DNA from: Rhizobiales bacterium PAR1
GTDB taxonomy: Bacteria > Pseudomonadota > Alphaproteobacteria > Rhizobiales > Beijerinckiaceae
Assembly (NCBI GenBank): GCA_002256205.1
Contig: NKIW01000011.1
Span: 10,055-74,054 of the forward strand
Reading direction: 5' to 3'
Length of the DNA: 64,000 nt
In this document: piece by piece, positions 4,447 through 60,692 of the stretch
Layout: each line of letters opens with the position of its first letter
Position numbering within the stretch: position 1 is the stretch's first letter
The notes under the pieces: model-generated
Seen by the model: only the letters and a program-made list of their open reading frames with translations
What the model was told of the DNA's origin: nothing
The model's database searches: none
Translations under genes and position numbers: made by a program

Positions 4447-4455
4447 CGGGCGCGG

Positions 4456-5985
4456 CTACTCCCGTACGCCCGGTGCATAACCAAACCCGACGGCGGGTTC
4501 AGCCGCCGTCTCAACCCAGACGCTTTTAACCTGCGTGTATTCGTAAAGCGCCTCGACGCCGCTTGAGCGGCCATGACCCGAATGGTTGAAGCCGCCAAAG
4601 GGCGAAGCGACGTTGATCGTCTTGTACGAATTGATCCAGAAGGTCCCGGACTTCACCGCTGCCGCGACGCGATGCGCGCGCCCGACGTCCCGCGTCCAGA
4701 CTGCACCGGCGAGCCCGAAATCGCTGTCGTTGGCGATGGCAATCGCCTCGGCCTCGGTCTCGAAAGGAATGGCCACGACAACCGGTCCGAAGACCTCGCG
4801 CCGCGCGATCCCCATGGCATTAGTCACGCCTTTGAGCACGGTGGGGCGAACGAAATAGCCGCCTTCGGCTAGCTCTCCGGTCTCACCCGTAGCGATCACC
4901 GCCCCCTCTTCCGCGCCTTCCCGCACGAGCGCGAGAACATGGCTATACTGCTTGCGGTTGTTGATCGGCCCGACCTCGGTTTCGGCGAGCGCCGGATCGC
5001 CGACGCGGATTTTCGCGGCTCCTTTCGCAACAAGATCAACAAAGTGGTCATATATAGAGCGCTGGACAAGAAGCCGTGACCCCGCGACGCAGCTTTGCCC
5101 AGCGCCCGAAAAAATCGCGGACTGCGCACCAATCGCCGCGCGTTCAAGATCCGCATCCTCGAAGACGATATTGGCGGATTTGCCGCCGAGTTCGAGCACG
5201 CAGGGCAAGAGGCGTTTTGCCGCAGCCTCTGCGATCAGCCGGCCTGTCGGCACGGAGCCAACAAACACAACCTTTTTCACCGCGTGTTCGGCCAACGCCG
5301 CCTGCCCGGTCGAATGGCCGAAACCCGCAAGCACATTGATGACGCCCTTCGGCAGGCCCGCCTGCTCCGCAAGGAGCGCCAGCGCGAGCGAGGTCAGCGG
5401 CGTGAGTTCGGAGGGTTTCAGGATCACCGCATTGCCCATGGCGATCGCCGGCGCGATCTGCCAGCCTGCCGTGAAAATCGGCGCATTCCAGGGGGTGATC
5501 TGGAGCACGACGCCCATCGGCTCGCGGCGGGTGTAATTGAGGTGGCTGGAAGGAACCGGAATCACCTCGCCGTGGAATTTATCTGCCCAGCCCGCGTAAT
5601 ACTCGAACATCTCAGCGACCTTGGCGACCTCGACGCGGGTATCGCGGATCGGCTTGCCGGCGGAGAGCGATTCGAGCTTCGCCAGCGCTTCCGCCGAGGC
5701 GAGCACGGCCCGGGCAATTGCCTGCATGACACGACCCCGCGCCGCGGCGGTCAGTTTGGCCCATTCGGCTTGCCCGGCCTGCGCGGCCGCAACGGCTTTG
5801 GCGGCCACAGGGGCCCCGGCATCGGGATAAGCAAGCAACAGCTTTCCGGTGACGGGATCATCCACAGAAACGCGCGCGCCGGTTCCGGCGATCATCACAC
5901 CCCCGACGTGCGATCCCACCTCGGCGAGATCGGGCCAGAACGGATGGAGCGCCTCGGCAAGACGCGGATCAAGAAAAGAAGTCAT
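4456..5985 (-). CDS. Aldehyde dehydrogenase family protein
   Basis: ITPWNAP, LKPSELTP, catalytic Glu in LELGGKS, catalytic Cys in GQSCVAG, EVFGPV. Confidence 0.95.
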   Translation of the reverse strand: MTSFLDPRLAEALHPFWPDLAEVGSHVGGVMIAGTGARVSVDDPVTGKLLLAYPDAGAPVAAKAVAAAQAGQAEWAKLTAAARGRVMQAIARAVLASAEALAKLESLSAGKPIRDTRVEVAKVAEMFEYYAGWADKFHGEVIPVPSSHLNYTRREPMGVVLQITPWNAPIFTAGWQIAPAIAMGNAVILKPSELTPLTSLALALLAEQAGLPKGVINVLAGFGHSTGQAALAEHAVKKVVFVGSVPTGRLIAEAAAKRLLPCVLELGGKSANIVFEDADLERAAIGAQSAIFSGAGQSCVAGSRLLVQRSIYDHFVDLVAKGAAKIRVGDPALAETEVGPINNRKQYSHVLALVREGAEEGAVIATGETGELAEGGYFVRPTVLKGVTNAMGIARREVFGPVVVAIPFETEAEAIAIANDSDFGLAGAVWTRDVGRAHRVAAAVKSGTFWINSYKTINVASPFGGFNHSGHGRSSGVEALYEYTQVKSVWVETAAEPAVGFGYAPGVRE

Positions 5986-9224: not shown

Positions 9225-10987
9225 ATGCGGCAGGCCCTTCTTGCGCTTCTCGTCGGGATGATCGCGGCGACCTTGGCCTCTATGATCACGAACGACTTCT
9301 ATCTGCGCATCCTCTTTTCCATCGCGACCTATTTCCTCTGTGCCGCCGGGATGAACGTGCTTCTCGGCTATGCCGGGCAGAAATCGCTCGGGCAGGCCGG
9401 ACTTTTCGCCGCGGGAGCCTATACCGCCGCGTTGATGACGACGCGCTGGGGCTTTGGGCCGTGGACGGCGTTTCTCGCGGCAGGCGTGGTCGCAGGGCTT
9501 TTCGGCATCCTGATCGCCCTCCCCTCCTTGCGCGTGAAAGGGCCGAGCCTTGCGATGGTCACACTCGCCTTCGGCATTGTCGTCGAGAAGGTCGTCAGCG
9601 AATTCACCGATCCCTTCGGCGGCGCCATGGGGCTTTACGCTATCCAGCCGCTGACCTGGAAAGGCGCGCCCTTCACCATGCAGCACTGGGTGCTGTTTGC
9701 GATTTTCCTCTCGGTCGTTACGCATATCCTGCTCGCCAACCTGCTGACCGGGCGGTTCGGGCGGGCGTTGCTCTCGCTTCAGGCGGATGAACTGGCGGCG
9801 AGCAGTGTCGGGGTGCCGGTCTATGCCACGAAGGTGCTCGCCTTCGTGATCGCCGCCGTCACCTGCGGCCTCGCGGGGGCGCTGGTGGCGCAGCAGAACC
9901 AGTATCTCAACTCTGATTTCATCTCGTTCCATCTCTCGATCTTCATCATCCTGATGGTGCTGTTCGGTGGCGCGGGTTCGCTTGCAGGGCCGTTCCTTGG
10001 CGCAGTTGTGCTGGTGATCCTCGGCGCCTATCTCGCGCGCTGGAGCTGGCTGGAGCATTTCGTCAACGGCGCGCTGTTGCTCTTCGCGCTCTACGCCATG
10101 CCGAAGGGCCTTGCGGGGCTGTTCCGCCCCAAACCAGCCGCACGCATCGGCGGCGCGCTCGGACAAGCCGTGGATGTCGCCCTGCCGATCCGCCCTCGTG
10201 CATCGGCAAGCGCCGATACCCCGCTTCTCGCCGTCACGGGTATCTCCAAGGCCTATGGCGGCGTGAAGCCGGCGCGCGATGTCTCGTTTTCCCTCACCGA
10301 AGGCCATATTCATGCGTTGATCGGCCCAAATGGCGCGGGCAAGACGACGATGATCAACATGCTCTCGGGTGTGATTACACCGGATGCAGGCACGATCCAT
10401 TTCCTCGGACAGGCGATCGAGGGGCGCGGCACGGAAGACATCGCCCGGCTCGGACTTGCGCGCAGCTTTCAGAATTTGCGCCTCTTCACCGATCTTTCGG
10501 TGCGTGACAATGTGCTGCTCGGCCAGCACTCGCGGATGCAGAACGGCTTTTTCGCCTCACTACTGGCACTGCCTTTCGCGGGCCGCGAGGAGCGGCAAGC
10601 GGAGGCCAAGGTCGCGGCGATCCTCACCTTCTGCGGCCTTTCCGCTCATGCGGATCTTCCTGCAGGAAGCCTGCCTTACGGGCTGCAACGCCGCGTGGAA
10701 CTCGCCCGCGCGCTTGCGCTGGAACCGCGCCTCCTGCTGCTCGATGAACCGGCAGCAGGTCTCAACCCGAGCGAGACCGCGCTCCTCGGCGATCTTCTGG
10801 AAGCCATCCGCCGGCAAGGAATCACAATCCTGATCGTCGAACATCACATGGATCTCGTGATGCGCATCTCGGACCATGTCATCGTGCTCGATTACGGCAC
10901 CAAGATCGCAGAAGGACCACCCGCGAAGGTGCAGGCCGACCCCAAGGTTATCACTGCCTATCTCGGTATCGACGAGGAGGCCGCGTG

Positions 10988-27516: not shown

Positions 27517-28202
27517 ATGCGCGGCTCCGACGTGCTGGTTTGGGTGCGGAAGGTGGTTTGAGTATTACGCCACGAAGAGCGGATATGTGCCCGCATCGCT
27601 TCTTCGGCGCGCGCGGGATCACGACTGCGCAGCGCTTCGACAATCGCGCGGTGCTCGTTGCGCGCCTCGATGGCGCGGCCCGGCGTGAGGCTGGAACGGA
27701 AGCGGTAGAGCCGCATCACGTCGTAGAGCTCGTCCGAAAGCGCCCGGAACAGGCGCTGGTTGTGGCTCGCGCGGGCAATACCGAAATGGAAATCCTGATC
27801 GCCGCCCGGTTGGTAATACGACTGCCCCGAGGCCACTTCAGGCCGCACCGCATGACCGCGCAGGCTCTCCTCGAGCACCACAAGCTCCGCATCGGTGATC
27901 CGCTCGGCGGCAAGACGGCAAGCCATGCCCTCCATCGCCTCGCGCAATTCGAAGAGGCTCCTGAGATCATCGAGCGTGAGATCCACGACTCGGGCGCCGA
28001 AATGCGCAACGCGCGTCGCAAGGCCCTTGGCCTCAAGGCGAAAAATTGCCTCGCGCGCCGGGCCGCGACTAACCCCGAACCTCAGCGCGATCTCGTTCTC
28101 GCTGATCGGGCTGCCGGCCTCGATCTCACCAACGACAATGGCTTCCACCACACGGGCGAAAACCTGATCGGCGAGGGTCTGGCGGGTGACGCTGTCTCTC
28201 AT
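27513..28202 (-). CDS. GntR/FCD-family transcriptional regulator
   Basis: Start ATG 28202; GVSRGPAREAIFRLEAKGL wHTH; DQDFHFGIA, EHRAIVEAL, AMRAHI FCD motifs. Confidence 0.93.
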   Translation of the reverse strand: MRDSVTRQTLADQVFARVVEAIVVGEIEAGSPISENEIALRFGVSRGPAREAIFRLEAKGLATRVAHFGARVVDLTLDDLRSLFELREAMEGMACRLAAERITDAELVVLEESLRGHAVRPEVASGQSYYQPGGDQDFHFGIARASHNQRLFRALSDELYDVMRLYRFRSSLTPGRAIEARNEHRAIVEALRSRDPARAEEAMRAHIRSSWRNTQTTFRTQTSTSEPRI

Positions 28203-28209
28203 GTCGTAA

Positions 28210-28237
28210 ACTGTAGACAGTATGCGATTTGTGTCAA
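28210..28237 (-). promoter_or_regulatory. Sigma70-type promoter with an overlapping palindromic GntR-type operator
   Basis: Minus strand TTGACA (28237-28232), 16 nt, TACAGT (28215-28210). The palindrome ACTGT-AG-ACAGT (28210-28221) overlaps the -10. Confidence 0.6.
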
Positions 28238-28392
28238 CGGCCCTGATGCGCCTTTTGAACGCACGTTCAAAGACTGGGTTCGGGAACCGGTTTGGCTGAG
28301 CAAAGCGCATCAGGACGACGGCACGCGGGGTCGATTGCCAGTAGCAAGACAGCCGGGGGAAATATGCGTCCGGGAGGTATTCCAGCGAGAAA

Positions 28393-28425
28393 ATCCCGGC
28401 GCAGCGTAGCGTACCGCGCCGGGAT
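28393..28425 (-). terminator. Hairpin downstream of tctA
   Basis: ATCCCGGCGC-13nt-GCGCCGGGAT, followed on the minus strand by TTTCTC. Confidence 0.6.
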
Positions 28426-28437
28426 GTGAGGCGATCC

Positions 28438-29937
28438 TCAGTCTTCGTTCGCCTTGAACTTGTTCAAACCGCCCGCCACATAGGGTGCGATGAGCGCGAG
28501 GAAGGCGACACCGAGCAGCGTCGCGGCAATCGGGCTTTGCACCAGCACGAGCGGATCGCCAATGCTGATCTGAAGCGCGCGGCGGAACTGGCTTTCGGCC
28601 ATCGGCCCGAGGATCAGCCCCACGACCATCGGCGCGACAGGATAGTCATAGCGCCGCATCAGGAAGCCGATGATGCCGAAACCGAGCAGCATCAGGAGTT
28701 CAGCAATCGAGCCCTTGGTCGCGATCGACCCCATCGCGGCGAACATCAGGATGCCGGCATAGAGCCACGGTGTCGGGATTTTCAGCAGCTTCACCCAAAT
28801 GCCAACCAGCGGCAGGTTCAGCACCACGAGCATCGCGTTGGCGATGAAGAGGCTGGCGATGAGGCCCCAGACGAGATCAGGCTTCTCCGCGAACAACAGT
28901 GGGCCGGGGTTGAGTCCGAACTGCTGGAAGCCCGCAAGCATGATGGCCGCGGTCGCCGAGGTTGGCAAGCCGAGCGAGAGCAGCGGCACCAGCGTACCGG
29001 CCACCGAGGCATTGTTGGCCGCCTCAGGCCCCGCGACGCCTTCAATCGCGCCAATGGTGTCCCATTCCTCGGGGTGCTTCGAGAGCCGTTTCTCGGTCGA
29101 ATACGACAGGAAGGTTGGGATTTCCGCACCGCCCGCTGGCAGCGCGCCAATCGGGAAGCCATACATGGTGCCGCGCAGCCACGGCTTCCACGAACGCTTC
29201 CAGTCCTCCTTCGACATCCAGAGCGAGCCGGTCATCTGCATGACTTCCTCGGCAACCCGGTGACGCGAGACAACAAACATCGCTTCGCCAATGGCAAAGA
29301 GTCCCACCGCCAACGTCGTGACTTCCACGCCGTCGAGCAGTTCCGGCAGGCCGAACGTCAGTCGAGACTGGCCCGTCAGTTTGTCAATGCCGATGAGACC
29401 GAAGGCGAGACCGCAAAACAGACTGATGAGCCCCTTGAGCGGCGAATCACCGAAGGTCGCCGAGACGGTGATGAAGGCCACCACCATCAGCGCGAAGTAA
29501 TCCTCCGGGCCGAATTGCACCGCGAACTTCACCATCCACGGCGCCAGAAATGCGATGCCCGCCGTCGCGATAAAACCGGCGATGAAGGAGCCGATGGCCG
29601 AGGTCGCAAGCGCAGGCCCGGCGCGGCCGCTTTTGGCCATCAGGTTGCCTTGCAAGGCCGTCGCCATCGAGGCGCTTTCGCCCGGCGTGTTGATGAGGAT
29701 CGAGGTCGTCGAGCCGCCGTACATCGCGCCGTAGTAGATGCCGGCGAACATGATCAGTGAGCCAGAGGGGTCAAGCTTGAAGGTGATCGGCAGAAGAAGC
29801 GCCACCGTTACCGCCGGGCCGATACCCGGTAACACACCAACCGCCGTACCAAGCAGCACGCCGACAGAAGCATAAAGGAGGTTTGCCGCCGTCATTGCGA
29901 CGGTGAAACCCGACATCAAGGCATAAAAGGATTCCAT
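28438..29937 (-). CDS. tctA: Tripartite tricarboxylate transporter large permease
   Basis: [37 protein letters not shown]. Confidence 0.95.
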
Positions 29938-32827: not shown

Positions 32828-34150
32828 TTAGTCCGATCGAAAAGTTTCCCGTTTCTGCCCTCTTGCCTCCTTCAGTCTGGCACTGATCAACGCCATAAGG
32901 ATCGGGCCCACGGAGAAATGCCCCTCACGCTTTTTCTCGGTCAATGCACGCAAATAACCACCGGGGAAGCGGATATCATCACCCTTTTGCAAGATTGCGG
33001 CGATCACGATCGAGGCATCGACAAGACCCATCGTCTCGACGGCATCCTGCCAGGCATCCGGGGAAATCCCGAGCATGGCCCGGACGAGAGCCGCCGTTTT
33101 CAGGAAAGCCGCCCAATTGCGGATCGTCGGGGTCTCGAGTTGCCCCTCCCCTGTCGGGGCTTCGGCATAGTCGAGGATATCCGGGCAGGCCTCGAGCACC
33201 ATGCCGAGTGGTGTTCCCATCGCCGGGTGGGCTTCGGCAGGTGCGGTAAGTGGGTCGTCGAGTTCTGAAATGGCATGTTCTGACTGCTCTGGCTGAAGCG
33301 CGTCGATTTCGCCCCTGTCATTTTTGGAGGCAGGTTCAGATTCATGAAGATCAGTTTTTGAATTCTGTTTGTGAGCGCCATTTTGGGATTCATTGGCGTC
33401 TGGAATCGATGAATTCACGAAAAGTTCGAGATGGTTGGCGATGGCACAAGCAAGATCCGTCAAATCCGCTGCGGTCGTTGTCAGGGCGGCAACGTCCGCC
33501 GACCGTCTCAACCCAGCGATGATACCGAGATATGCAGCGTGAAGACCCATCCAGTCGCCCGGCAGGGCCTCCTCAAGCCCCAGGGCGATCATCTTGGTGA
33601 TATCCCGTCGCGCCAGCGTCACGCGCTCCCGTGCGAGCCGGAGCGCCTTCTTCCGCGCCTGCACCTCGGCCGCAAGCGCCTCGAACTCTTCGGCACGGGC
33701 CACAAGCGGCGTCAGGTCAAACCCGAAGGCTTCACTGACCGCCCCACCCTCCCCGCGCCGTGCGTAGCGCTTGCCGTTGGGACTGTCGCGCCGGATCACG
33801 ATGCCAGCATCGACGAGAATCGCGAGGTGTCGCCGCAATGTTGTCGGCGCGACGCCATGGGCGCGCGCGGCCAGTTTTTCATTGGAGGGAAACACCACCA
33901 GCGGATCGCCCGCCGTGAGCGTCGTCTCCTGATGAAATGATAGCAGCGCATTCAAAATCGCCAGCGCCCGATCCGGCAAGCCGAGCCGGTCCTTGGCTTC
34001 CGTTAGCGCCGTGAACACCTTCCATTTGTGGACGGTCTTCTCCGGCTCCACTGCTCTCGCCTGCGCCTGGGTTGCAATCAGACCAAGCGACATCGAGCGC
34101 CGCCCGAAGGGCGTCGTTGCCAATCCATGTGTCATTGTCTTTGCCTTCAA
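32828..34150 (-). CDS. repC: Plasmid replication initiator RepC
   Basis: TTPFGRRSMS, VFPSNEKL, RHLAILVDAGIVIRRDSPNGKRYARR, FGFDLTPL, VLEACP, LGISPDAW, PGGYLR.L. Confidence 0.96.
   Translation of the reverse strand: MKAKTMTHGLATTPFGRRSMSLGLIATQAQARAVEPEKTVHKWKVFTALTEAKDRLGLPDRALAILNALLSFHQETTLTAGDPLVVFPSNEKLAARAHGVAPTTLRRHLAILVDAGIVIRRDSPNGKRYARRGEGGAVSEAFGFDLTPLVARAEEFEALAAEVQARKKALRLARERVTLARRDITKMIALGLEEALPGDWMGLHAAYLGIIAGLRRSADVAALTTTAADLTDLACAIANHLELFVNSSIPDANESQNGAHKQNSKTDLHESEPASKNDRGEIDALQPEQSEHAISELDDPLTAPAEAHPAMGTPLGMVLEACPDILDYAEAPTGEGQLETPTIRNWAAFLKTAALVRAMLGISPDAWQDAVETMGLVDASIVIAAILQKGDDIRFPGGYLRALTEKKREGHFSVGPILMALISARLKEARGQKRETFRSD
33330..33430. other. Probable oriV core inside repC (AT-rich, GANTC cluster)
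   Basis: AT-rich patch with GANTC at 33339, 33387 and 33403. repABC origins are known to lie within repC; the boundaries are inference. Confidence 0.5.
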
Positions 34151-34344: not shown

Positions 34345-35394
34345 TTATCTCGGTGCCTTCCTCGTGGAAGACGTGGACGTCGCCTGATCGAGATAGCGGC
34401 GGTAGAAATTCGGCAGTTCACTGGCAAGAAAACTCATGAAGCCGGGTGCCAGGGTTTCGTTGAAAATCAGCTGTGACGTAGACTTGCCACGCTTCCGGGA
34501 GACGATGCCCTTCCCCGCAGGATCCTCCACCAGAACATCCGGTTCCGCTTTTTCATCTTCTCGTGCAGATGGCACATCGAGCGCCCGCATCGCTTCAAGA
34601 AAACGACGATCGGAATCGAACGCACTGAACGTGCTTCGCTCCAGAACAGCCCCGAGACGCCGCTCGGCGCCCGGCGCCTGAAGCAACTCGGCAAGCGCCA
34701 TCCAGCGTGCGCGGCCGGCCTTGGGTGCCGAACCAATTCTCTTGGCAATTGCCTCGGGCACGGAACGCGCGACCTGTATCAGACGACTGAGGTCTGCCTT
34801 GTCGGTCGAGAGCGACGTGCCGATCACCGCGCGATCATAGCCCGCTTCTTCAAGCCGGCGCGCGAACAGCGCCTTCTCGATGAACGAAAGATCGCGACGC
34901 TCGCTGTTCTCCTTGCCCTGCGCCGTGATTAGCGCCTCATCCGTCAGAGCCTGAACGATCGCGCGAACAGGTTGGCCGAGGCGACGCGTTGCCTCGATCC
35001 GGCGGTGCCCGTAGGCGGCCTGAAAGCGCCCTGTCTGGTTCGGGTGTGGCCGCACCAGAATCGGCACCTGTTGACCTGCCTCCGCAATCGATTTGACGAG
35101 TTCATCGAGTGAAGGGTCGTGCTCGATCACGAGCCGATCGCGCACAGGTGCAGGATCGATGCTCTGCGGGTCCAGTTCCACGATGGTCTTTGCATTCGCG
35201 ATTTGCGCCTGCAAATCTTCCGAAGCTTTAGCCGCCGCGGACCATTGCTGGAGCGAGGCCCCCATGGCAGCGACGGCACCCGTCCTCACGGCTGGCACGG
35301 CGCGTTCCATGCTGTTGGGAGCTCCCAACGGTTCAATCGGCTTATCGACTGGCTTCTTGGCAAAGAGGGCGTCGATGGTGGTTTTGCGGCTCAT
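34345..35394 (-). CDS. repB: Plasmid partitioning protein RepB (ParB family)
   Basis: GQQVPILVRPHP, YGHRR (CTPase motif), QGKENSERRDLSFIEKALFA. Confidence 0.96.
   Translation of the reverse strand: MSRKTTIDALFAKKPVDKPIEPLGAPNSMERAVPAVRTGAVAAMGASLQQWSAAAKASEDLQAQIANAKTIVELDPQSIDPAPVRDRLVIEHDPSLDELVKSIAEAGQQVPILVRPHPNQTGRFQAAYGHRRIEATRRLGQPVRAIVQALTDEALITAQGKENSERRDLSFIEKALFARRLEEAGYDRAVIGTSLSTDKADLSRLIQVARSVPEAIAKRIGSAPKAGRARWMALAELLQAPGAERRLGAVLERSTFSAFDSDRRFLEAMRALDVPSAREDEKAEPDVLVEDPAGKGIVSRKRGKSTSQLIFNETLAPGFMSFLASELPNFYRRYLDQATSTSSTRKAPR
35314..35329. repeat. parS-like palindrome, copy 1 (inside repB)
   Basis: GTTGGGAGCTCCCAAC, a perfect 16-bp palindrome with GTT...AAC ends. Confidence 0.72.
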
Positions 35395-36644
35395 GCTTCA
35401 CCCCTCGCCCGCAGGCTTCGACCCCATGCCGAGCGGATCAAATTCTCGATCTCGACATGCACCGCCTCAAGCGCCTCGGCCGCGCGGTCATAGGTCGAAC
35501 GCGTCAGGTTTTCGCGCCCGATCTCATAGAGCGTCTGCTTGGTCAGACCGGCATCGGACATTGCGGTCGATTTCACCATCGGGTTGGTCAGCACATGATC
35601 GCCGAAGAGGTTGCGCAGCAGGGCGACCACCTTGGTTTGCGGACCATCCTGAGGCTCATAGCGTGTGATCAGGTAGCGCAGGAAGTCGTAGTTGAGACGC
35701 GCACCAGCCTCGCGCACCACGGCGAGAAGGTCGCGCGTCATCAGCAGGAATTGGCTCATCGAAGCAATATCGAGCATCTGTGGATGCACCGTAACGAGTA
35801 CGCCGGTGGCGGCACAAATACCGGAGAGCGTGAGATAGCCGAGCTGCGGCGGGCAATCGATGATCACCACATCGAAGTCGTCCGCCACCGGATCAAGCGC
35901 CTGCGCCACGCGTGCAAAAAACACCTGGTCTGGTGCACGCATTCCGGCGGAGAGCGCACGCGGCGTTTCATGCTCGAACTCCATCAGTTCGAGATTGCCC
36001 GGCACCAGCGAGAGCCCGTCGAAATAAGTCCTGCGGATAATATCCTTCAACGGCCGCCGCTCGCCATCATAGCGGATCGCGGCATAGAGCGTTTCGTTCG
36101 GACCAACCTCAAATTCCGGCGTCAGGCCGAGGAGGGCGGAAAACGACGCTTGCGGGTCAAGGTCGATGCCGAGCACGCGGTAGCCGCGCAGCGCGAGATA
36201 TTGCGCAAGATGCGCTGACGTCGTGGTCTTGCCCGAACCACCCTTGAAATTGGTGACCGCGATGACCTGAAGATGATCACCCTCTGCCCGGCGCGGGAGG
36301 TATTCGAGCGCATCCTTGCGGCCACGGGCAGAGCGCGCCAGCAGGACACGCAGCTCGTTGATTTCCTCAAGGCTGTAACGTCGCTGGCCATTGCCCACGG
36401 TTTCGGGCTGCGGGCCTTCCCCGGCAAGCGAGAGCTGGCGTAGGCGCGAATCCGTGACACCAATCAGCTTCGCGGCTTCCCCCGAGGTGAACTTGCGCAG
36501 CACCTTCTCCGATGTCGGCGGGAAGAGGGCCGCGCTGATGGTGCGCAGCTGATCACTGAGCAAGCCGGCATGCTCACCAATCGTCTCGTCGATTGACGGC
36601 AAATGCGGTTTTGTCTCGCTTGAAGCACGGTTCACGATGGGCAC
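35391..36644 (-). CDS. repA: Plasmid partitioning ATPase RepA (ParA family)
   Basis: RKFTSGEAAKL HTH, NFKGGSGKTT, DLDPQAS, IDCPPQLGYLT, VHPQMLD, TKQTLYE. Confidence 0.96.
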   Translation of the reverse strand: MPIVNRASSETKPHLPSIDETIGEHAGLLSDQLRTISAALFPPTSEKVLRKFTSGEAAKLIGVTDSRLRQLSLAGEGPQPETVGNGQRRYSLEEINELRVLLARSARGRKDALEYLPRRAEGDHLQVIAVTNFKGGSGKTTTSAHLAQYLALRGYRVLGIDLDPQASFSALLGLTPEFEVGPNETLYAAIRYDGERRPLKDIIRRTYFDGLSLVPGNLELMEFEHETPRALSAGMRAPDQVFFARVAQALDPVADDFDVVIIDCPPQLGYLTLSGICAATGVLVTVHPQMLDIASMSQFLLMTRDLLAVVREAGARLNYDFLRYLITRYEPQDGPQTKVVALLRNLFGDHVLTNPMVKSTAMSDAGLTKQTLYEIGRENLTRSTYDRAAEALEAVHVEIENLIRSAWGRSLRARGEA

Positions 36645-55517: not shown

Positions 55518-56669
55518 ATGCAGCTTCGCGGCAACTGGAACTACCCGACCTCCATCAAATTCGGTGCGGGCCGCATCGCGGAACTCGCCGAAGCAGTCAA
55601 GGCAGCGGGAATCAGCCGGCCTCTGCTCGTCACCGACCCGGTGCTCGCCAAGCTGCCGATGGTCGCGGCGGCAAAGGCACAACTCGATGCGGCGGGCCTG
55701 CCCTGCACGGTCTTCTCGGACGTGAAGCCGAACCCGGTCGCGGCGAATGTCGAGGCCGGCATCGCCGTGCTGCGTGCCGGCAAGCATGACGGGGTTGTCG
55801 CGTTCGGCGGCGGCTCGGCGCTCGATGCCGGCAAGGTCATTGCCTTCATGGCCGGCCAGACCCGCCCGATGTGGGATTTCGAGGATGTCGGAGATTGGTG
55901 GACCCGCGCCGACCCAAAGGGCATCGCGCCGATTATCGCCGTCCCAACCACTGCCGGTACAGGTTCCGAGGTTGGTCGCGCCGGCGTCATTACCGATGAG
56001 GCGACGCACACCAAAAAGGTGATCTTCCACCCTTTGATGATGCCGAAGACCACGATCTGCGACCCGGAACTCACGGTTGGCATGCCGAAGATGATCACCA
56101 TCGGCACCGGCATGGATGCCTTCGCCCATTGCCTTGAGGCCTATTGCGGACCGTTCTACCACCCGCTCGCGGACGGTATCGCGCTTGAGGGCATGCGCCT
56201 TGTGAAGGAATATCTCCCGCGTGCCGCGAAAGACGGCACCGATCTTGAAGCGCGGGCGCAGATGATGTCCGCCGCCGCGATGGGCGCTACAGCGTTCCAG
56301 AAGGCGCTGGGCGCGATCCATGCGCTCAGCCATCCGGTCGGCTCGCTCTACAATACCCATCACGGCATGACCAACGCGGTCTTCATGCCCTATGTGCTCG
56401 AGTTCAACCGCCCGGTAATCGAGGAGAAGATGGGCCGGGTCGCGGCCTATCTCGGCCTCGGGACGACCTATTCAGCGTTCTATGATTTTGTGATGCAACT
56501 CCGGCGCGATCTTGGCGTGCCGCACACGCTGCCAGAACTCGGCGTCACGGACCCGGATATCCAGCTCATGGCGACGATGTCCCCGAACGACCCGACAGCC
56601 GGCGGCAACCCGGTTCTCCTCGACGAATCCGCCGCGCGGATGCTGTTTGAGCAGGCCATGCGGGGATAA
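55518..56669 (+). CDS. Iron-containing alcohol dehydrogenase
   Basis: GGGSALD, PTTAGTGSE, GMDAFAHCLE, HALSH, HHG. Confidence 0.94.
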   Translation: MQLRGNWNYPTSIKFGAGRIAELAEAVKAAGISRPLLVTDPVLAKLPMVAAAKAQLDAAGLPCTVFSDVKPNPVAANVEAGIAVLRAGKHDGVVAFGGGSALDAGKVIAFMAGQTRPMWDFEDVGDWWTRADPKGIAPIIAVPTTAGTGSEVGRAGVITDEATHTKKVIFHPLMMPKTTICDPELTVGMPKMITIGTGMDAFAHCLEAYCGPFYHPLADGIALEGMRLVKEYLPRAAKDGTDLEARAQMMSAAAMGATAFQKALGAIHALSHPVGSLYNTHHGMTNAVFMPYVLEFNRPVIEEKMGRVAAYLGLGTTYSAFYDFVMQLRRDLGVPHTLPELGVTDPDIQLMATMSPNDPTAGGNPVLLDESAARMLFEQAMRG

Positions 56670-56711: not shown

Positions 56712-56748
56712 AATGGCCTCGCCCTCCGGCGGGGCCATTTCCTTTTGA
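56712..56748 (+). terminator. Intrinsic terminator of the GS-ALDH-ADH operon
   Basis: AATGGCCTCGCC-ctcc-GGCGGGGCCATT followed by TCCTTTTG. Confidence 0.65.
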
Positions 56749-56826
56749 GTGCCTGCTCGGGGAAATTCGGGAACTCCTTCCTGTCTGCGGAATTGATCGA
56801 ACGCAAACATATTCAAGAGGCTTTAC

Positions 56827-56843
56827 ATTAGAAAGATTCCAAA
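56827..56843. promoter_or_regulatory. Iron control element (ICE, Irr box)-like site
   Basis: ATTAGAA-AGA-TTCCAAA versus the Rhizobiales ICE consensus TTTRGAA-N3-TTCYAAA (one mismatch), 51 bp upstream of the ATPase start. Confidence 0.7.
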
Positions 56844-56894
56844 CTAGGCGTCGTGCCTGATCCATTGCTCTTGCCTGCCGAAAGGATTTTCCTC

Positions 56895-58850
56895 GTGTCC
56901 CAAATTCTTACCACCGAGGATTCCGCCCTTCCTTCCGAACCGCATGATGAGACCGTGCATGATCACGCGCCCTTCGAGCGTATGGCGCTTGTGCGCATTG
57001 CGGTGGCCATTCTGGGCGCTGCGGCTGTCTGGTTCCGCCTCTGGGAGCCCTTGCCGAGCGTCAGCGTAATCGGCGTGGCCGCGCTGGCCTTTGTCGGATG
57101 GCCTATTTTTCGCGAAGCCTTCGAGAACCTTCTCGAACGCCGGATGACGATGGAACTCTCGATGACCATCGCGATCATCGCTGCTGCCGCGATTTCGGAA
57201 TGGTTCACGGCGCTGGTGGTCTCGCTCTTTGTGCTTGTGGCGGAGGAACTGGAGCATCTCACGCTGGCGCAGGGCCGCGTCGCGATCCGCGATCTTGTCG
57301 AGTTCATCCCGCGTGAGGCCCGCGTGCGCCGGAACGGCGAGGTCGCCATGGTGCCACTCGATACGGTCGAGGCCGGCGAATTCGTGATGGTTTCTCCCGG
57401 TGAGAAAGTCCCGGTCGATGGCGCGGTGGTCGAGGGGCATTCCTATGTCGATCAGTCGCGCATCACCGGTGAAGCGATGCCTGCCGAGAAGGCAGCCGGC
57501 AGTGCGGTCTTCGCGGGCTCGATCAACCAGATGGGCGCGCTCGAGATCCGCGTCGAGAACGTCGGGCGGGACACCAGCTATGGCCGTATCATTCAGGCAG
57601 TGGAGGCCGCCGAGCAGACCCGTGCTCCAGTACAGAAGCTGGCCGACCGGCTGGCAGGCTACCTCGTTTATGTCGCTTTTGCCGCCGCCGCGCTGACCTA
57701 TTTCATCACCCGCGACATCCGCGACACCATCTCGGTGATCATCGTCGCCGGTGCCTGCGGGATCGCGGCGGGGACGCCACTAGCAATCCTCGGCGGCATC
57801 GGCCGCGCGGCCAAGCTTGGCTCGATCATCAAGGGCGGCATTCACCTCGAGACACTGGGCCGGGTCAACACCGTGGTGCTCGACAAAACCGGCACGCTGA
57901 CCCTTGGCGAACCCGCCGTGCAGGCAATCAATCCCTCGTCCGCCTTCGCGGAAAGCGACCTGCTGCGCCTCGCCGCTGCCGCGGAGTTCCATTCCGAGCA
58001 CCCGCTGGCGCGCGCAATTGTTGCGGAAGCGCTGGCGCGCGGGATCACCATCCCCGAGCCGGAGCGGTTCCACTATACGATCGGGCGCGGCATCACCGCG
58101 ATGATCGACCGCCAGCCGGTTCTCGTCGGCAACCGCAAGCTGCTCACCGAGAATGGCATCACGCCGCCGGATCGGGTCGACGGGCGCATCGGCTCGGATA
58201 TTGTCGTCGCGGCGGGCGGGGTTTATGCGGGCGAAATCGTCGTGGCGGATACGCTACGCCCCGAAGCCAAATCCGCGCTGGCGAACCTCCATGCCCTCGG
58301 CATCCATACCATTCTGCTCACCGGTGATACCCGCGCCGTGGCTGAAGCCGTGGGCAAAGAACTCGGCATCAGCGAGGTCGGCGCCGAGATGATGCCGGAT
58401 GACAAGCTCACCCGCGTAAAAGTGCTCGTTGCGAGTGGGCGGATCGTCGCGATGGTCGGTGATGGCGTCAATGATGCACCGGCTCTGACCGCCGCGAGCC
58501 TCGGCATTGCGATGGGCTCAGGCACCGATATCGCCAAGGAAAGCGCCGATGTCGTGCTGATCGGCAACCACCTCGGCAAACTCGTTGAAACGCTGCGGAT
58601 CGCACGGAAAACACGCGGAATCATCTGGCAGAATTTTGCCGGCACGCTCGGGGTGGATGCCCTCGGCATTCTTCTCGCCGCCTTCGGCTTTCTCAACCCG
58701 TTGATTGCCGCCTTCATCCACGTCGGATCGGAACTGCTGTTTATCCTCAATTCCGCGCGTTTGCTCGCGCTTGATGGCGCGCCGACGACAACCACTTTCT
58801 CTCAAACGAGCCCTGCAAAGGAGCCGGACCATGCACCCGCTGCACCGTGA
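56895..58850 (+). CDS. Heavy-metal P1B-type ATPase with a non-canonical TM4 motif (GAC)
   Basis: GTG 56895 with AAGGA RBS; ITGEAMP, VAGACGIAAGTP, DKTGTLT, SEHPLA, TGD, GDGVNDAPAL, HVGSE. Confidence 0.92.
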   Translation: MSQILTTEDSALPSEPHDETVHDHAPFERMALVRIAVAILGAAAVWFRLWEPLPSVSVIGVAALAFVGWPIFREAFENLLERRMTMELSMTIAIIAAAAISEWFTALVVSLFVLVAEELEHLTLAQGRVAIRDLVEFIPREARVRRNGEVAMVPLDTVEAGEFVMVSPGEKVPVDGAVVEGHSYVDQSRITGEAMPAEKAAGSAVFAGSINQMGALEIRVENVGRDTSYGRIIQAVEAAEQTRAPVQKLADRLAGYLVYVAFAAAALTYFITRDIRDTISVIIVAGACGIAAGTPLAILGGIGRAAKLGSIIKGGIHLETLGRVNTVVLDKTGTLTLGEPAVQAINPSSAFAESDLLRLAAAAEFHSEHPLARAIVAEALARGITIPEPERFHYTIGRGITAMIDRQPVLVGNRKLLTENGITPPDRVDGRIGSDIVVAAGGVYAGEIVVADTLRPEAKSALANLHALGIHTILLTGDTRAVAEAVGKELGISEVGAEMMPDDKLTRVKVLVASGRIVAMVGDGVNDAPALTAASLGIAMGSGTDIAKESADVVLIGNHLGKLVETLRIARKTRGIIWQNFAGTLGVDALGILLAAFGFLNPLIAAFIHVGSELLFILNSARLLALDGAPTTTTFSQTSPAKEPDHAPAAP

Positions 58851-59526
58851 AAACCATCTCGTCGAGCGCATCGGTTGGCTGCGTGCCGCGGTTCTCGGCG
58901 CCAATGACGGGATTATTTCCACCGCGAGCCTTGTGGTCGGTGTGGCTGCGGCGGCAAAATCGACCGACGAGATTTTCGTTGCCGGCGTTGCCGGGCTGGT
59001 GGCTGGCGCGATGGCCATGGCTGCCGGTGAATATGTCTCGGTGAGTTCGCAAGCCGATACCGAGCAGGCGGATATCGCCCGCGAGAAGCGCGAGCTTGCC
59101 GAAACACCCGAAGCCGAACTCAACGAGTTGACGCAGATCTACGTCTCGCGCGGTGTTGAGCCGGATCTTGCCCGCAAGGTCGCCAAGCAAATGACCGCGA
59201 AAGACGCTTTCGCCGCCCATGCGCGCGATGAACTCGGATTGTCGGACCATGGCTCGGCGCGCCCGGTTCAGGCAGCGATCACCTCGGCCATTACCTTTGC
59301 GGCCGGCGCGGCCATTCCACTGCTGATCGCGATGGCTTCCCCAATGAAAAGCATGGCCTGGACCGTATCAGGCGGCTCGCTCATCTGCCTTGCCGTGCTG
59401 GGTGCCCTCGGTGCCAGAGTCGGCGGTGCCCCGGTGCTCAGGCCGGCAGTCCGTGTGACTTTCTGGGGTGCCTTTGCCATGGCCGCGACATCAGCCATCG
59501 GCGCCATAGTCGGCCACGCGGTCTAG
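58831..59526 (+). CDS. VIT1/CCC1 family Fe/Mn transporter
   Basis: WLRAAVLGANDGIISTASL, MAAGEYVSVSSQ, E-rich AREKRELAETPEAELNELT, HARDELG; start overlaps the ATPase 3' end. Confidence 0.93.
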   Translation: MHPLHRENHLVERIGWLRAAVLGANDGIISTASLVVGVAAAAKSTDEIFVAGVAGLVAGAMAMAAGEYVSVSSQADTEQADIAREKRELAETPEAELNELTQIYVSRGVEPDLARKVAKQMTAKDAFAAHARDELGLSDHGSARPVQAAITSAITFAAGAAIPLLIAMASPMKSMAWTVSGGSLICLAVLGALGARVGGAPVLRPAVRVTFWGAFAMAATSAIGAIVGHAV

Positions 59527-60692
59527 CGCAAGGCGGTCTTGCCCGTCTCTCGCTGAAGGCGCGCGATCCCCAGAAAGCTGACCACCAGAATGCCGATGCC
59601 ATTGGCAATCAGCGTCGGCCCGAAGCCAATAGCGCTGGAGGCGATCTGAAACAGGATGGGGCCGGAGGCTATACCGAGAAACAGGAAGAATGCGTGCAGC
59701 GACACCGCCGAGGCGCGCGCTTCCGGCATCACCTCCGTCACGCGGGTTTGCAAGCCGGAATGGAGCATGTAGAACCCGAAGCCATTGATCATGAACACCA
59801 CAAGCATCGATTGCCAGCTCCATACCACCGGCATGGTGATCAGGCACAGACCCATCACCGCGCCGCCGGTCTGCATGATCCGGAACGGATCGAACCGCCG
59901 GACCATGGTCTTGACCGCCACGGTGAAAGCAAGGCCGCCGAGCCCGACGCCCGCCAGCACATAGCCCGCCTCGGTGACATCACCGAAGCCACGCGCCTTG
60001 AGAAACAGCGCGATATGCGGCGTAAAGCCGAGAACACAGAGCCCTTCGAAAAATACCGTAATGTAACAGGCGCGGGCGCGCGGATCTTTCAAAAGCGCCC
60101 GGTATGTCGCGAGCGAACGCGCTACCGAGAACGGCGGCCGGGGAATATCCGGGCGTGGCTTGATGTATTTGATCAGAAGCAGGAGGCTCGCAACGCAAAC
60201 GACCGCCGCGACCAGCAGCACGCGATGCCAATTCCACGCTTGCGCGATGGCGGCAGACAACGGCGAGGCAAAAACCTGTCCGACCATCAGTGCGACCATG
60301 AAATGGCTCATCGCGACCTGTCGCTCGGCCAACGGATAGCGATCCGCGATCAACGCGAGCGAAGCCGGAATGACTCCGCCCCCGGCAAGCCCTGCCAGAA
60401 GGCGCATCGGTAACAGGGTTGCGTAATCCGGCGCGATGGCTGCCGCGATGGTGGAGAGAGTCAGCACGATGATGCAGACCTTGAGCACCAGTGCCTTGCC
60501 GAAACTATCGCCCACCGGCCCGAGGAACGGTTGAACGAGCGCATAAGGCAGCGTGAAAGCCGGCGAGAGCATGACAACGAGATGCGGATCGACGTTGAGT
60601 TCCGTGGCGATCAACGCCGTCAACGGATCAAGAACCCGCTGGTTGAACGACACCGCGAGGCCAATACAGCCAAGCACGAGCAGGAGAGGCAT
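59523..60692 (-). CDS. MFS transporter
   Basis: About 12 TM; GPVGDSFGK (motif A), RLLAGLAGGG, ADRYPLAERQ. Confidence 0.9.
   Translation of the reverse strand: MPLLLVLGCIGLAVSFNQRVLDPLTALIATELNVDPHLVVMLSPAFTLPYALVQPFLGPVGDSFGKALVLKVCIIVLTLSTIAAAIAPDYATLLPMRLLAGLAGGGVIPASLALIADRYPLAERQVAMSHFMVALMVGQVFASPLSAAIAQAWNWHRVLLVAAVVCVASLLLLIKYIKPRPDIPRPPFSVARSLATYRALLKDPRARACYITVFFEGLCVLGFTPHIALFLKARGFGDVTEAGYVLAGVGLGGLAFTVAVKTMVRRFDPFRIMQTGGAVMGLCLITMPVVWSWQSMLVVFMINGFGFYMLHSGLQTRVTEVMPEARASAVSLHAFFLFLGIASGPILFQIASSAIGFGPTLIANGIGILVVSFLGIARLQRETGKTALR

Follow-up and report, generated by a model that had tools for sequence, protein, structure and literature searches.

Which metal is moved, and under whose control, by a P-type ATPase whose gene runs into a gene of the VIT1/CCC1 family and whose upstream region carries a palindrome resembling the iron control element (ICE) of the regulator Irr? 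The locus lies in a 64,000-nucleotide stretch of the genome of Rhizobiales bacterium PAR1, here called the window, which covers positions 10,055 to 74,054 of contig NKIW01000011.1 (G000:C16:10055-74054) in an assembly of 4.2 Mb with 61% G+C. A two-gene unit, consisting of a P1B-type ATPase gene followed by a VIT1 gene, both on the plus strand, occupies positions 56895 to 59526. It is read here, with a probability of about 0.7, as a bicistronic, Irr-repressed metal efflux operon whose pump and VIT1 protein would lower cytoplasmic iron alongside the exporter MbfA. An unusual pump and a VIT1 protein stand together behind a conserved putative Irr site, so the operon most likely removes excess iron. 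The initial annotation of this DNA had proposed Irr-controlled iron export, and the comparisons described below support that interpretation, in which the binding of Irr, its direction of control, and the metal substrate are predictions from comparative sequence analysis.

The ICE and promoter region reads gcTTTACATTAGAAAGATTCCAAActaggcg. Its -35-like hexamer, CTTTAC (56821-56826, plus strand), agrees at five of six positions with CTTGAC, which we take to be the alphaproteobacterial consensus. The hexamer is followed immediately by the ICE, or Irr box, ATTAGAA-AGA-TTCCAAA (ATTAGAAAGATTCCAAA; 56827-56843, no strand assigned), and a putative -10-like hexamer, CTAGGC (56844-56849, plus strand), lies directly 3′ of the box, so that the 17-nt spacer of the CTTTAC/CTAGGC promoter coincides exactly with the ICE. 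The box agrees with the consensus TTTAGAA-N3-TTCTAAA (PMC1698941) at 12 of the 14 specified positions. Both the TTTACA named as the -35 element in the initial annotation (56822-56827), which differs from CTTTAC by a 1-nt shift of one and the same element, and the ICE-like box that it placed in the promoter spacer are present at the coordinates given there. A 43-nt block (56812-56854) comprising the -35 hexamer, the ICE, and the -10 hexamer is invariant in comparison with locus L207, a 94%-identical relative, and both flanks of the block have diverged. The promoter assignment is based on aligned orthologous upstream regions and not on a sigma-70 scan.

About 100 loci encoding relatives of the pump were collected. 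In a maximum-likelihood tree, the window's pump fell in a clade of 14 rows (Shimodaira-Hasegawa-like approximate likelihood ratio test support of 99), with a sister clade of 46 rows. ICEs were counted in 18 nonredundant loci, made up of the window's clade and three further loci assigned to it by identities of 72 to 77%. The initial annotation had staked its reading on conservation of the box in orthologs, and an ICE with at most two mismatches is found in 12 of these 18 loci, from several Rhizobiales families, at 36 to 98 bp before the start codon. No such site was found in any of the 46 sister-clade loci, which gives good support to regulation by Irr. The ICE of Microvirga sp. G4-2 has no mismatch. 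Those of a Rhabdaerophilum metagenome-assembled genome (MAG), genome G077, Bosea sp. TND4EK4, loci L082/L083, L208, and L209, and plasmid pXAUT01 of Xanthobacter autotrophicus Py2 (Xaut_4952) have one, and those of the window, L207, Azorhizobium doebereinerae, and L132 have two. A common layout recurs, in which a -35-like hexamer runs up to the first ICE base and a CTA-type hexamer begins right after the last one, with CTAGAT, CTATCC, ATAGCT, GTAGCT, GTAGAT, and CTATGA at the -10 position of the orthologs. This layout is shared by the aligned orthologs, and the ICE is therefore read as the promoter spacer. A variant palindrome, TTGGAA-N3-TTCCAA, occurs where the canonical ICE would be expected in L131 (position 2452), L006 (2404), L007 (2450), and L129 (2409), and also about 31 bp before the stand-alone VIT1 genes of L151, L154, and L159. 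It alters ICE positions 4 and 14 symmetrically, and the right half-site of the window's box, TTCCAAA, has the same change; the variant may be an accepted form of the Irr box or the site of a related regulator.

Some of the genes around the orthologous pumps are also related to iron, including an FbpA-like gene in L006 and Peripla_BP_2/FecCD genes in L130. Genes for PepSY, cytochrome b561/Ni_hydr_CYTB, ApbE, and flavodoxin-reductase proteins recur just upstream of ICE-linked pumps (L129, L131, L209, and L210), and these constitute a possible membrane redox context, perhaps that of an iron reductase. A two-component system sometimes joins the PepSY, cytochrome b561, and ApbE genes.

Elsewhere in the genome, ICE matches fall mainly beside genes of iron metabolism. 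Nine sites with at most two mismatches occur in the 4.2 Mb, against about 2.8 expected under an order-2 Markov model, and the chance of such a site in any one 200-bp upstream region is about 1e-4. Six of the other eight sites (C8:331855, C11:10329, C14:98581, C18:42120, C21:239719, and C23:285611 of G000) adjoin iron-related genes typical of Irr regulons, which encode a NifS/SufS-like desulfurase, an FbpA-like Fe3+-binding protein, a TonB-dependent receptor, an FTR1 permease, MbfA, and the aconitase AcnA. The two remaining matches, one beside an Asp/Glu racemase-like gene and one inside an open reading frame (C5:182291 and C21:200808), look like chance. The mbfA product scores 518 bits against NF045676, and the ICE of this gene lies 20 bp from the start codon. 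The irr gene (G000:C21:51288-51536, minus strand) is one of four Fur-family genes; its product scores above the cutoffs of both NF045677 (213 bits; cutoff, 170) and NF045678 (214 bits) and, like the Bradyrhizobium protein, contains both a GCPVHD heme regulatory motif and an HHH motif. The ICE matches thus appear to mark a typical Irr regulon, and their occurrence before uptake genes points to Irr as the main iron regulator of this genome, as in Bradyrhizobium. No protein of the RcnR/CsoR family (PF02583) that could act in trans was found in the genome.

The pump gene has a Shine-Dalgarno sequence, GAAAGGA (56880-56886, plus strand), which is kept in L207, and extends from its likely start, a GTG at 56895, to 58850 on the plus strand. 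It encodes 651 aa, and the start agrees with an identical 651-aa protein on record (P0003) and with the starts of the orthologs. The product matches TIGR01525 with 538 bits (cutoff, 346), as well as PF00122 and PF00702, and contains the catalytic motifs DKTGT, ITGEAMP, SEHPLA, and VGDGVNDAPAL, which agrees with its earlier identification as a P1B-ATPase. Profile searches found no HMA domain in the pump, and its N terminus is short and His rich (HDETVHDH). The closest solved structures are those of CopA, a Cd2+ ATPase, and ZntA. Transmembrane helix 4 (TM4) reads VAGACGIAAGTP in all family members, with Cys288 in the AGAC(288)GIAAGTP of the window's pump, and the TM4 motif is invariant in about 60 orthologs. 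The motifs of TM5 (WQ579N580...D588, or WQN...VD) and TM6 (H609VGS612E613, or HVGSE) are family-wide, and the cytoplasmic end of M2 reads AEE118LEH121. The GAC of TM4 aligns with the CPC of Archaeoglobus fulgidus CopA, so the TM4 proline, which is otherwise nearly universal in P-type ATPases, is missing from the pump. None of the TM4 motifs of P1B-1 to P1B-7 (CPC, CPH, SPC, PCP, SCA, and CSC; PMC13460109) is found in the pump, which places it outside these seven subgroups as far as TM4 motifs, taken from PMC13460109 and PMC7558416, define them. The pump also has GAC and HVGSE in place of the SPC in TM4 and HEGxT in TM6 that characterize P1B-4. Its candidate ligands, one Cys together with His, Glu, Ser, Asn, and Gln, appear nearer to those of the P1B-4 Fe/Co pumps (SPC/HEGxT; PMC13460109, PMC7762939) than to those of the Cu or Zn/Cd types.

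The second gene was assigned to the VIT1/CCC1 family in the initial annotation, and this identity is borne out. It runs from an ATG at 58831 to 59526 on the plus strand, and its product, of 231 aa, matches PF01988 with 231 bits over profile positions 1 to 213 of 214 and matches TIGR00267 weakly. The protein aligns end to end with Eucalyptus VIT1 (EgVIT1; PDB 6IU3; E = 4e-20) and retains the TM1 Asp (GanDG), the TM2 Met (MaaGeY), and the cytosolic Glu cluster (E..E....E..E), keeping the residues of the Fe2+ path of EgVIT1. Profile searches found no ferritin-like domain and no match to NF045676, the MbfA profile, in this protein. The Shine-Dalgarno sequence of the VIT1 gene, AAAGGAG (58817-58823, plus strand), lies within the 3′ end of the pump gene, and the two genes overlap by exactly 20 bp (58831-58850, plus strand), as had been annotated, with the pump TGA inside the Arg-Glu codons of the VIT1 N terminus MHPLHRE. 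Translation of VIT1 is likely coupled to that of the pump.

Upstream of the two-gene unit, an intrinsic terminator (56712-56739, plus strand) consists of a 12-pair hairpin with 8 G-C pairs followed by the T-rich TCCTTTTGAG, in line with the upstream terminator previously claimed. The hairpin is kept in the alignment with L207, and the terminator, which belongs to an upstream gene for an iron-containing alcohol dehydrogenase (Fe-ADH) ending at 56669, is predicted to isolate the operon from upstream transcription. Downstream, the VIT1 stop codon and a convergent major facilitator superfamily (MFS) gene (59523-60692, minus strand) overlap by 4 bp, and the unit therefore has two genes. No terminator was found between the VIT1 and MFS genes at the 59523-59526 junction.

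In the proposed mechanism, Irr would be stable at low iron and would bind the ICE over the whole -35/-10 spacer, so that RNA polymerase would be excluded from the promoter. When iron and heme are sufficient, Irr would be inactivated or degraded and the operon transcribed, with VIT1 translation coupled to pump translation through the 20-bp overlap. The ATPase would then use ATP to pump Fe2+, and perhaps Co2+ and Ni2+ as well, out of the cytoplasm, and VIT1 would export Fe2+ and Mn2+ by proton antiport. A primary route and a secondary route of iron detoxification would in this manner be added to that of the chromosomal MbfA.

Several findings weigh against this mechanism. In 42 of the 46 sister-clade loci, a gene for a 91-aa DUF156 repressor (PF02583) adjoins the pump gene, nearly always directly upstream (for example, in L009, L014, L040, and about 40 more loci), and all 43 distinct repressors carry the H3-C35-H60-H64 (HCHH) fingerprint of the RcnR/DmeR Ni(II)/Co(II) sensors (PMC7055735). 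On plasmid p1META1 of Methylorubrum extorquens AM1 (L211; record positions 27638-29794), such a repressor-pump pair stands beside HupE/UreJ. The motifs of TM4 to TM6 are identical in both clades and, taken with the RcnR/DmeR neighbors, they imply that the transmembrane site may be a Ni/Co site. The window's pump could thus be a Ni2+/Co2+ exporter like its sister-clade relatives, placed under Irr since Co/Ni toxicity is tied to iron and heme status, with VIT1 handling Fe/Mn separately and merely sharing the promoter; in Agrobacterium, Co stress is known to be linked with iron regulation (PMC7055735). This explanation is unlikely in our judgment, since an ICE located in the promoter spacer would be expected to bring about repression at low iron, when Co/Ni toxicity should be worst, and since the predicted cotranscription with VIT1 and the iron-related neighbors of the orthologs point to iron. 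In addition, an invariant difference separates the clades at the end of M2, AEELEH in the window's clade versus AEVLEG in the sister clade, which suggests a functional shift. The change adds Glu118 and His121 beside the glutamate aligned with the CopA Glu that, from the CopA structures, we presume to act at the ion entry site. P1B-4 pumps and the czcD riboswitch commonly show cross-specificity among Fe2+, Co2+, and Ni2+ (PMC7762939, PMC9389577), so the iron and the Ni/Co explanations overlap. Because the sister clade is under Ni/Co-sensing repressors of the RcnR/DmeR type, Fe2+, perhaps together with Co/Ni, is put forward as a predicted substrate of the window's pump. The contrast between the clades gives the appearance of a switch from Ni/Co to iron in regulation and perhaps also in selectivity. 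It is possible, though doubtful, that the GAC family is a P1B subgroup not yet described and that the invariant Glu118 and His121 changes at the M2 ion entry site retuned its Irr-linked clade from Ni/Co to Fe2+. In its own right, the repressor-pump pair of the sister clade seems to be a Ni/Co-type resistance pair that has not been described; it is widespread on plasmids and among soil Alphaproteobacteria.

The promoter and the gene arrangement supply the remaining points against Irr-repressed iron efflux. A strict sigma-70 scan of the plus strand upstream of the pump gene detected no promoter, the -10 hexamer is as weak as the initial annotation had stated, and the ICE has two mismatches, including T14 to C. 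The canonical ICE is missing from six clade loci (L006, L007, L045, L046, L047, and L131); in L006, L007, and L131 its place is taken by a related palindrome whose half-sites are of the TTCCAA type, and three of the clade loci have none. Most of the ICE-linked orthologs are also without VIT1, so the pairing of pump and VIT1 is not obligatory. The two mismatches, the weak promoter features, and the six loci would fit a palindrome that matches by chance or serves another regulator, before an ordinary heavy-metal pump gene beside VIT1 that is constitutive or otherwise controlled. We consider this very improbable: a chance site is expected at about 1e-4 per 200-bp region, yet one stands at the corresponding position in 12 of the 18 clade loci and in none of the 46 sister-clade loci, and the same motif precedes mbfA, acnA, the desulfurase gene, and iron-uptake genes in this genome. 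A functional ICE could also mean that Irr acts as an activator and turns the operon on under iron limitation, for example, to expel competing Mn, Co, or Zn. Irr is known to act positively or negatively depending on the position of the ICE (PMC1698941), and Brucella Irr binds the intergenic region between hemN and zntA, the latter encoding a P-type ATPase and being expressed at a lower level in an irr mutant (PMC10374146). We nevertheless regard activation as quite improbable here, because the ICE of the window and of the orthologs is flanked by the -35-like and -10-like hexamers, a position associated with repression, as at mbfA, and because the VIT1 partner argues for a role in iron excess. 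Irr-repressed iron efflux remains the preferred explanation.

The association of VIT1 with P1B pumps has a distribution of its own. Of the 18 ICE-clade loci, 5 have a VIT1 gene downstream of the pump gene, namely, the window, L207, the Rhabdaerophilum MAG, G077, and L131, and the 20-bp overlap is identical in four of the five (the window, L207, L005, and L131), with a 2-nt gap in G077. In L131, the VIT1 gene (4452-4865) is truncated, with residues 1 to 122 left at 70% identity and the same 20-bp overlap, and this locus appears to be a decaying copy of the module. The idea that an ATPase-VIT1 pair is present throughout the pump family was rejected in light of these 5 of 18 loci and of the single sister-clade locus, which has a different order. 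The latter, on a metagenome contig (L084, 744-3485), reads VIT1-like gene, RcnR-type repressor gene, GAC-type pump gene; its VIT1-like protein is 40% identical to that of the window and scores 225 bits against PF01988, and the locus adds a third kind of linkage between VIT1 and the pump family.

Plain VIT1 genes were found in 71 of 301 genomes of the order and, among these 301, in no other genome of the window's family. In the 66 VIT1 loci examined, a GAC-type pump gene is upstream in one (G077) and a P1B-5-type pump gene directly upstream in six, which are L163 (G036), L164 (G192), L165 (G221), L177 (G076), L178 (G263), and L198 (a second copy in G036). The P1B-5-type pumps have ATPCPL in TM4 and are about 34 to 37% identical to the window's pump, and their VIT1 proteins are 61 to 66% identical to that of the window. 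In the three loci fetched in full, the genes overlap by 4 bp (G192) or are separated by 10 bp (G221) or about 550 bp (G036). No ICE was found before the P1B-5-VIT1 pairs in the stretches fetched. A sequence with a 4-nt spacer, GTTAGAT-AAAA-TTCCAAA (L165, 2026-2043), lies about 45 bp before the G221 pump gene and was left out of the ICE count. Upstream of the pair, G036 and G192 have ApbE-like and flavoprotein reductase genes. VIT1 was also considered as a general target of Irr, and this was rejected, since an ICE-like site (ICE or TTGGAA-N3-TTCCAA) precedes only 4 of 59 stand-alone VIT1 genes in the sample of the order. Pumps of the GAC type and of the P1B-5 type both adjoin VIT1, and P1B-VIT1 pairing therefore recurs with two pump subfamilies, the P1B-5 case being apparently a second, independent pairing. 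Because the pairing arose with two unrelated pump subfamilies and because the 20-bp overlap is conserved, we consider it possible, though doubtful, that pump and VIT1 form a genuine two-component iron efflux system as physical or functional partners. They would then either form a complex or couple two routes, one of high affinity driven by ATP and one of high capacity driven by protons.

To our knowledge, MbfA is the only characterized Irr-controlled iron exporter in the alphaproteobacteria. Four classes of bacterial iron exporters have been counted (PMC7762939). MbfA, an erythrin-VIT1 protein of Bradyrhizobium japonicum and Agrobacterium tumefaciens, resembles the operon in its repression by Irr at an ICE, its PF01988 domain, and its predicted role in iron export at high iron (PMC7762939, PMC4902296, PMC1698941). 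However, MbfA has 328 aa with an N-terminal ferritin-like domain, which the window's 231-aa VIT1 lacks, and the latter is encoded by the second gene of an accessory, probably plasmid-borne operon led by a P-type ATPase gene. The role proposed for the pump is comparable to the ATP-driven Fe2+ efflux of P1B-4 pumps such as PfeT of Bacillus subtilis, FrvA of Listeria, CtpD of Mycobacterium tuberculosis, and PmtA of group A Streptococcus. These pumps and the window's pump share the lack of an HMA domain, a single TM4 Cys, and His, Glu, and Ser in TM6, but the P1B-4 pumps have SPC, HEGxT, and Fur/PerR control (PMC7762939), whereas the window's pump has GAC without the TM4 proline, HVGSE, and an Irr/ICE site. 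The P1B-5 pump Nia of Sinorhizobium meliloti, which has a PCP motif and is linked to Ni2+/Fe2+, is likewise a rhizobial P1B pump implicated in iron; the P1B-5-type pumps found beside VIT1 differ from the window's pump in their low identity, their TM4 motif, and the ICE-free stretches fetched upstream of them. The sister clade resembles dmeRF of Rhizobium and Agrobacterium and rcnRA of Escherichia coli in pairing an HCHH DUF156 repressor with an effector (PMC7055735), but here the effector is a P-type ATPase instead of a cation diffusion facilitator or RcnA, and the window's clade has lost the repressor and gained an ICE. The window's VIT1 has full-length homology to Eucalyptus VIT1 (6IU3), to whose family the Fe2+/H+ exchanger PfVIT also belongs (PMC5309874). 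Unlike the VIT1/CCC1 proteins of plants and yeast, it would reside in the bacterial inner membrane, so that transport away from the cytoplasm would mean export rather than vacuolar storage.

The initial annotation was aware of no characterized system of this kind, and no published description of an Irr-controlled P-type pump with a VIT1 partner was found in the literature searched, the nearest case being the Irr site between zntA and hemN in Brucella (PMC10374146). In Rodionov et al. 2006, the word "ATPase" is absent from the main text. If the proposed regulation is correct, an Irr-controlled P-type pump would constitute a second, ATP-driven branch of the Irr response to iron excess. The two clades also offer a natural experiment, in which one pump family is combined with a Ni/Co sensor in one clade and with an iron regulator in the other and differs by two invariant entry-site substitutions, and this contrast allows the coevolution of P1B selectivity and regulation to be studied. 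The pairing of VIT1 with two P1B subfamilies suggests an as yet unstudied functional partnership. The ICE-linked pump in the cultured Xanthobacter autotrophicus Py2 (Xaut_4952) makes the regulation directly testable.

The operon is located about 20 kb from a repABC origin region, which comprises repC (32828-34150; PF03428/PF11800), repB (34345-35394; PF07506/ParB_N), and repA (35391-36644; ParA type), all on the minus strand. This makes it probable that the 109-kb contig C16 is a plasmid or chromid of the repABC type. The distribution of the pump family is patchy, with occurrences in 6 of 301 genomes of the order and in neither of the two congeners searched, and the ATPase-VIT1 module is apparently accessory. 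Synteny with the congener G098 stops at the Fe-ADH stop codon, and the MFS neighbor is absent from both congeners, so that a clean insertion site is not definable. The G+C fraction, 0.59 to 0.66 across the region, is unremarkable, and a recent foreign origin finds no sign in base composition. The same MFS neighbor is found in L207. Related pumps are plasmid-borne in Xanthobacter, Bosea, Novosphingobium, Rhodanobacter, and Methylorubrum.

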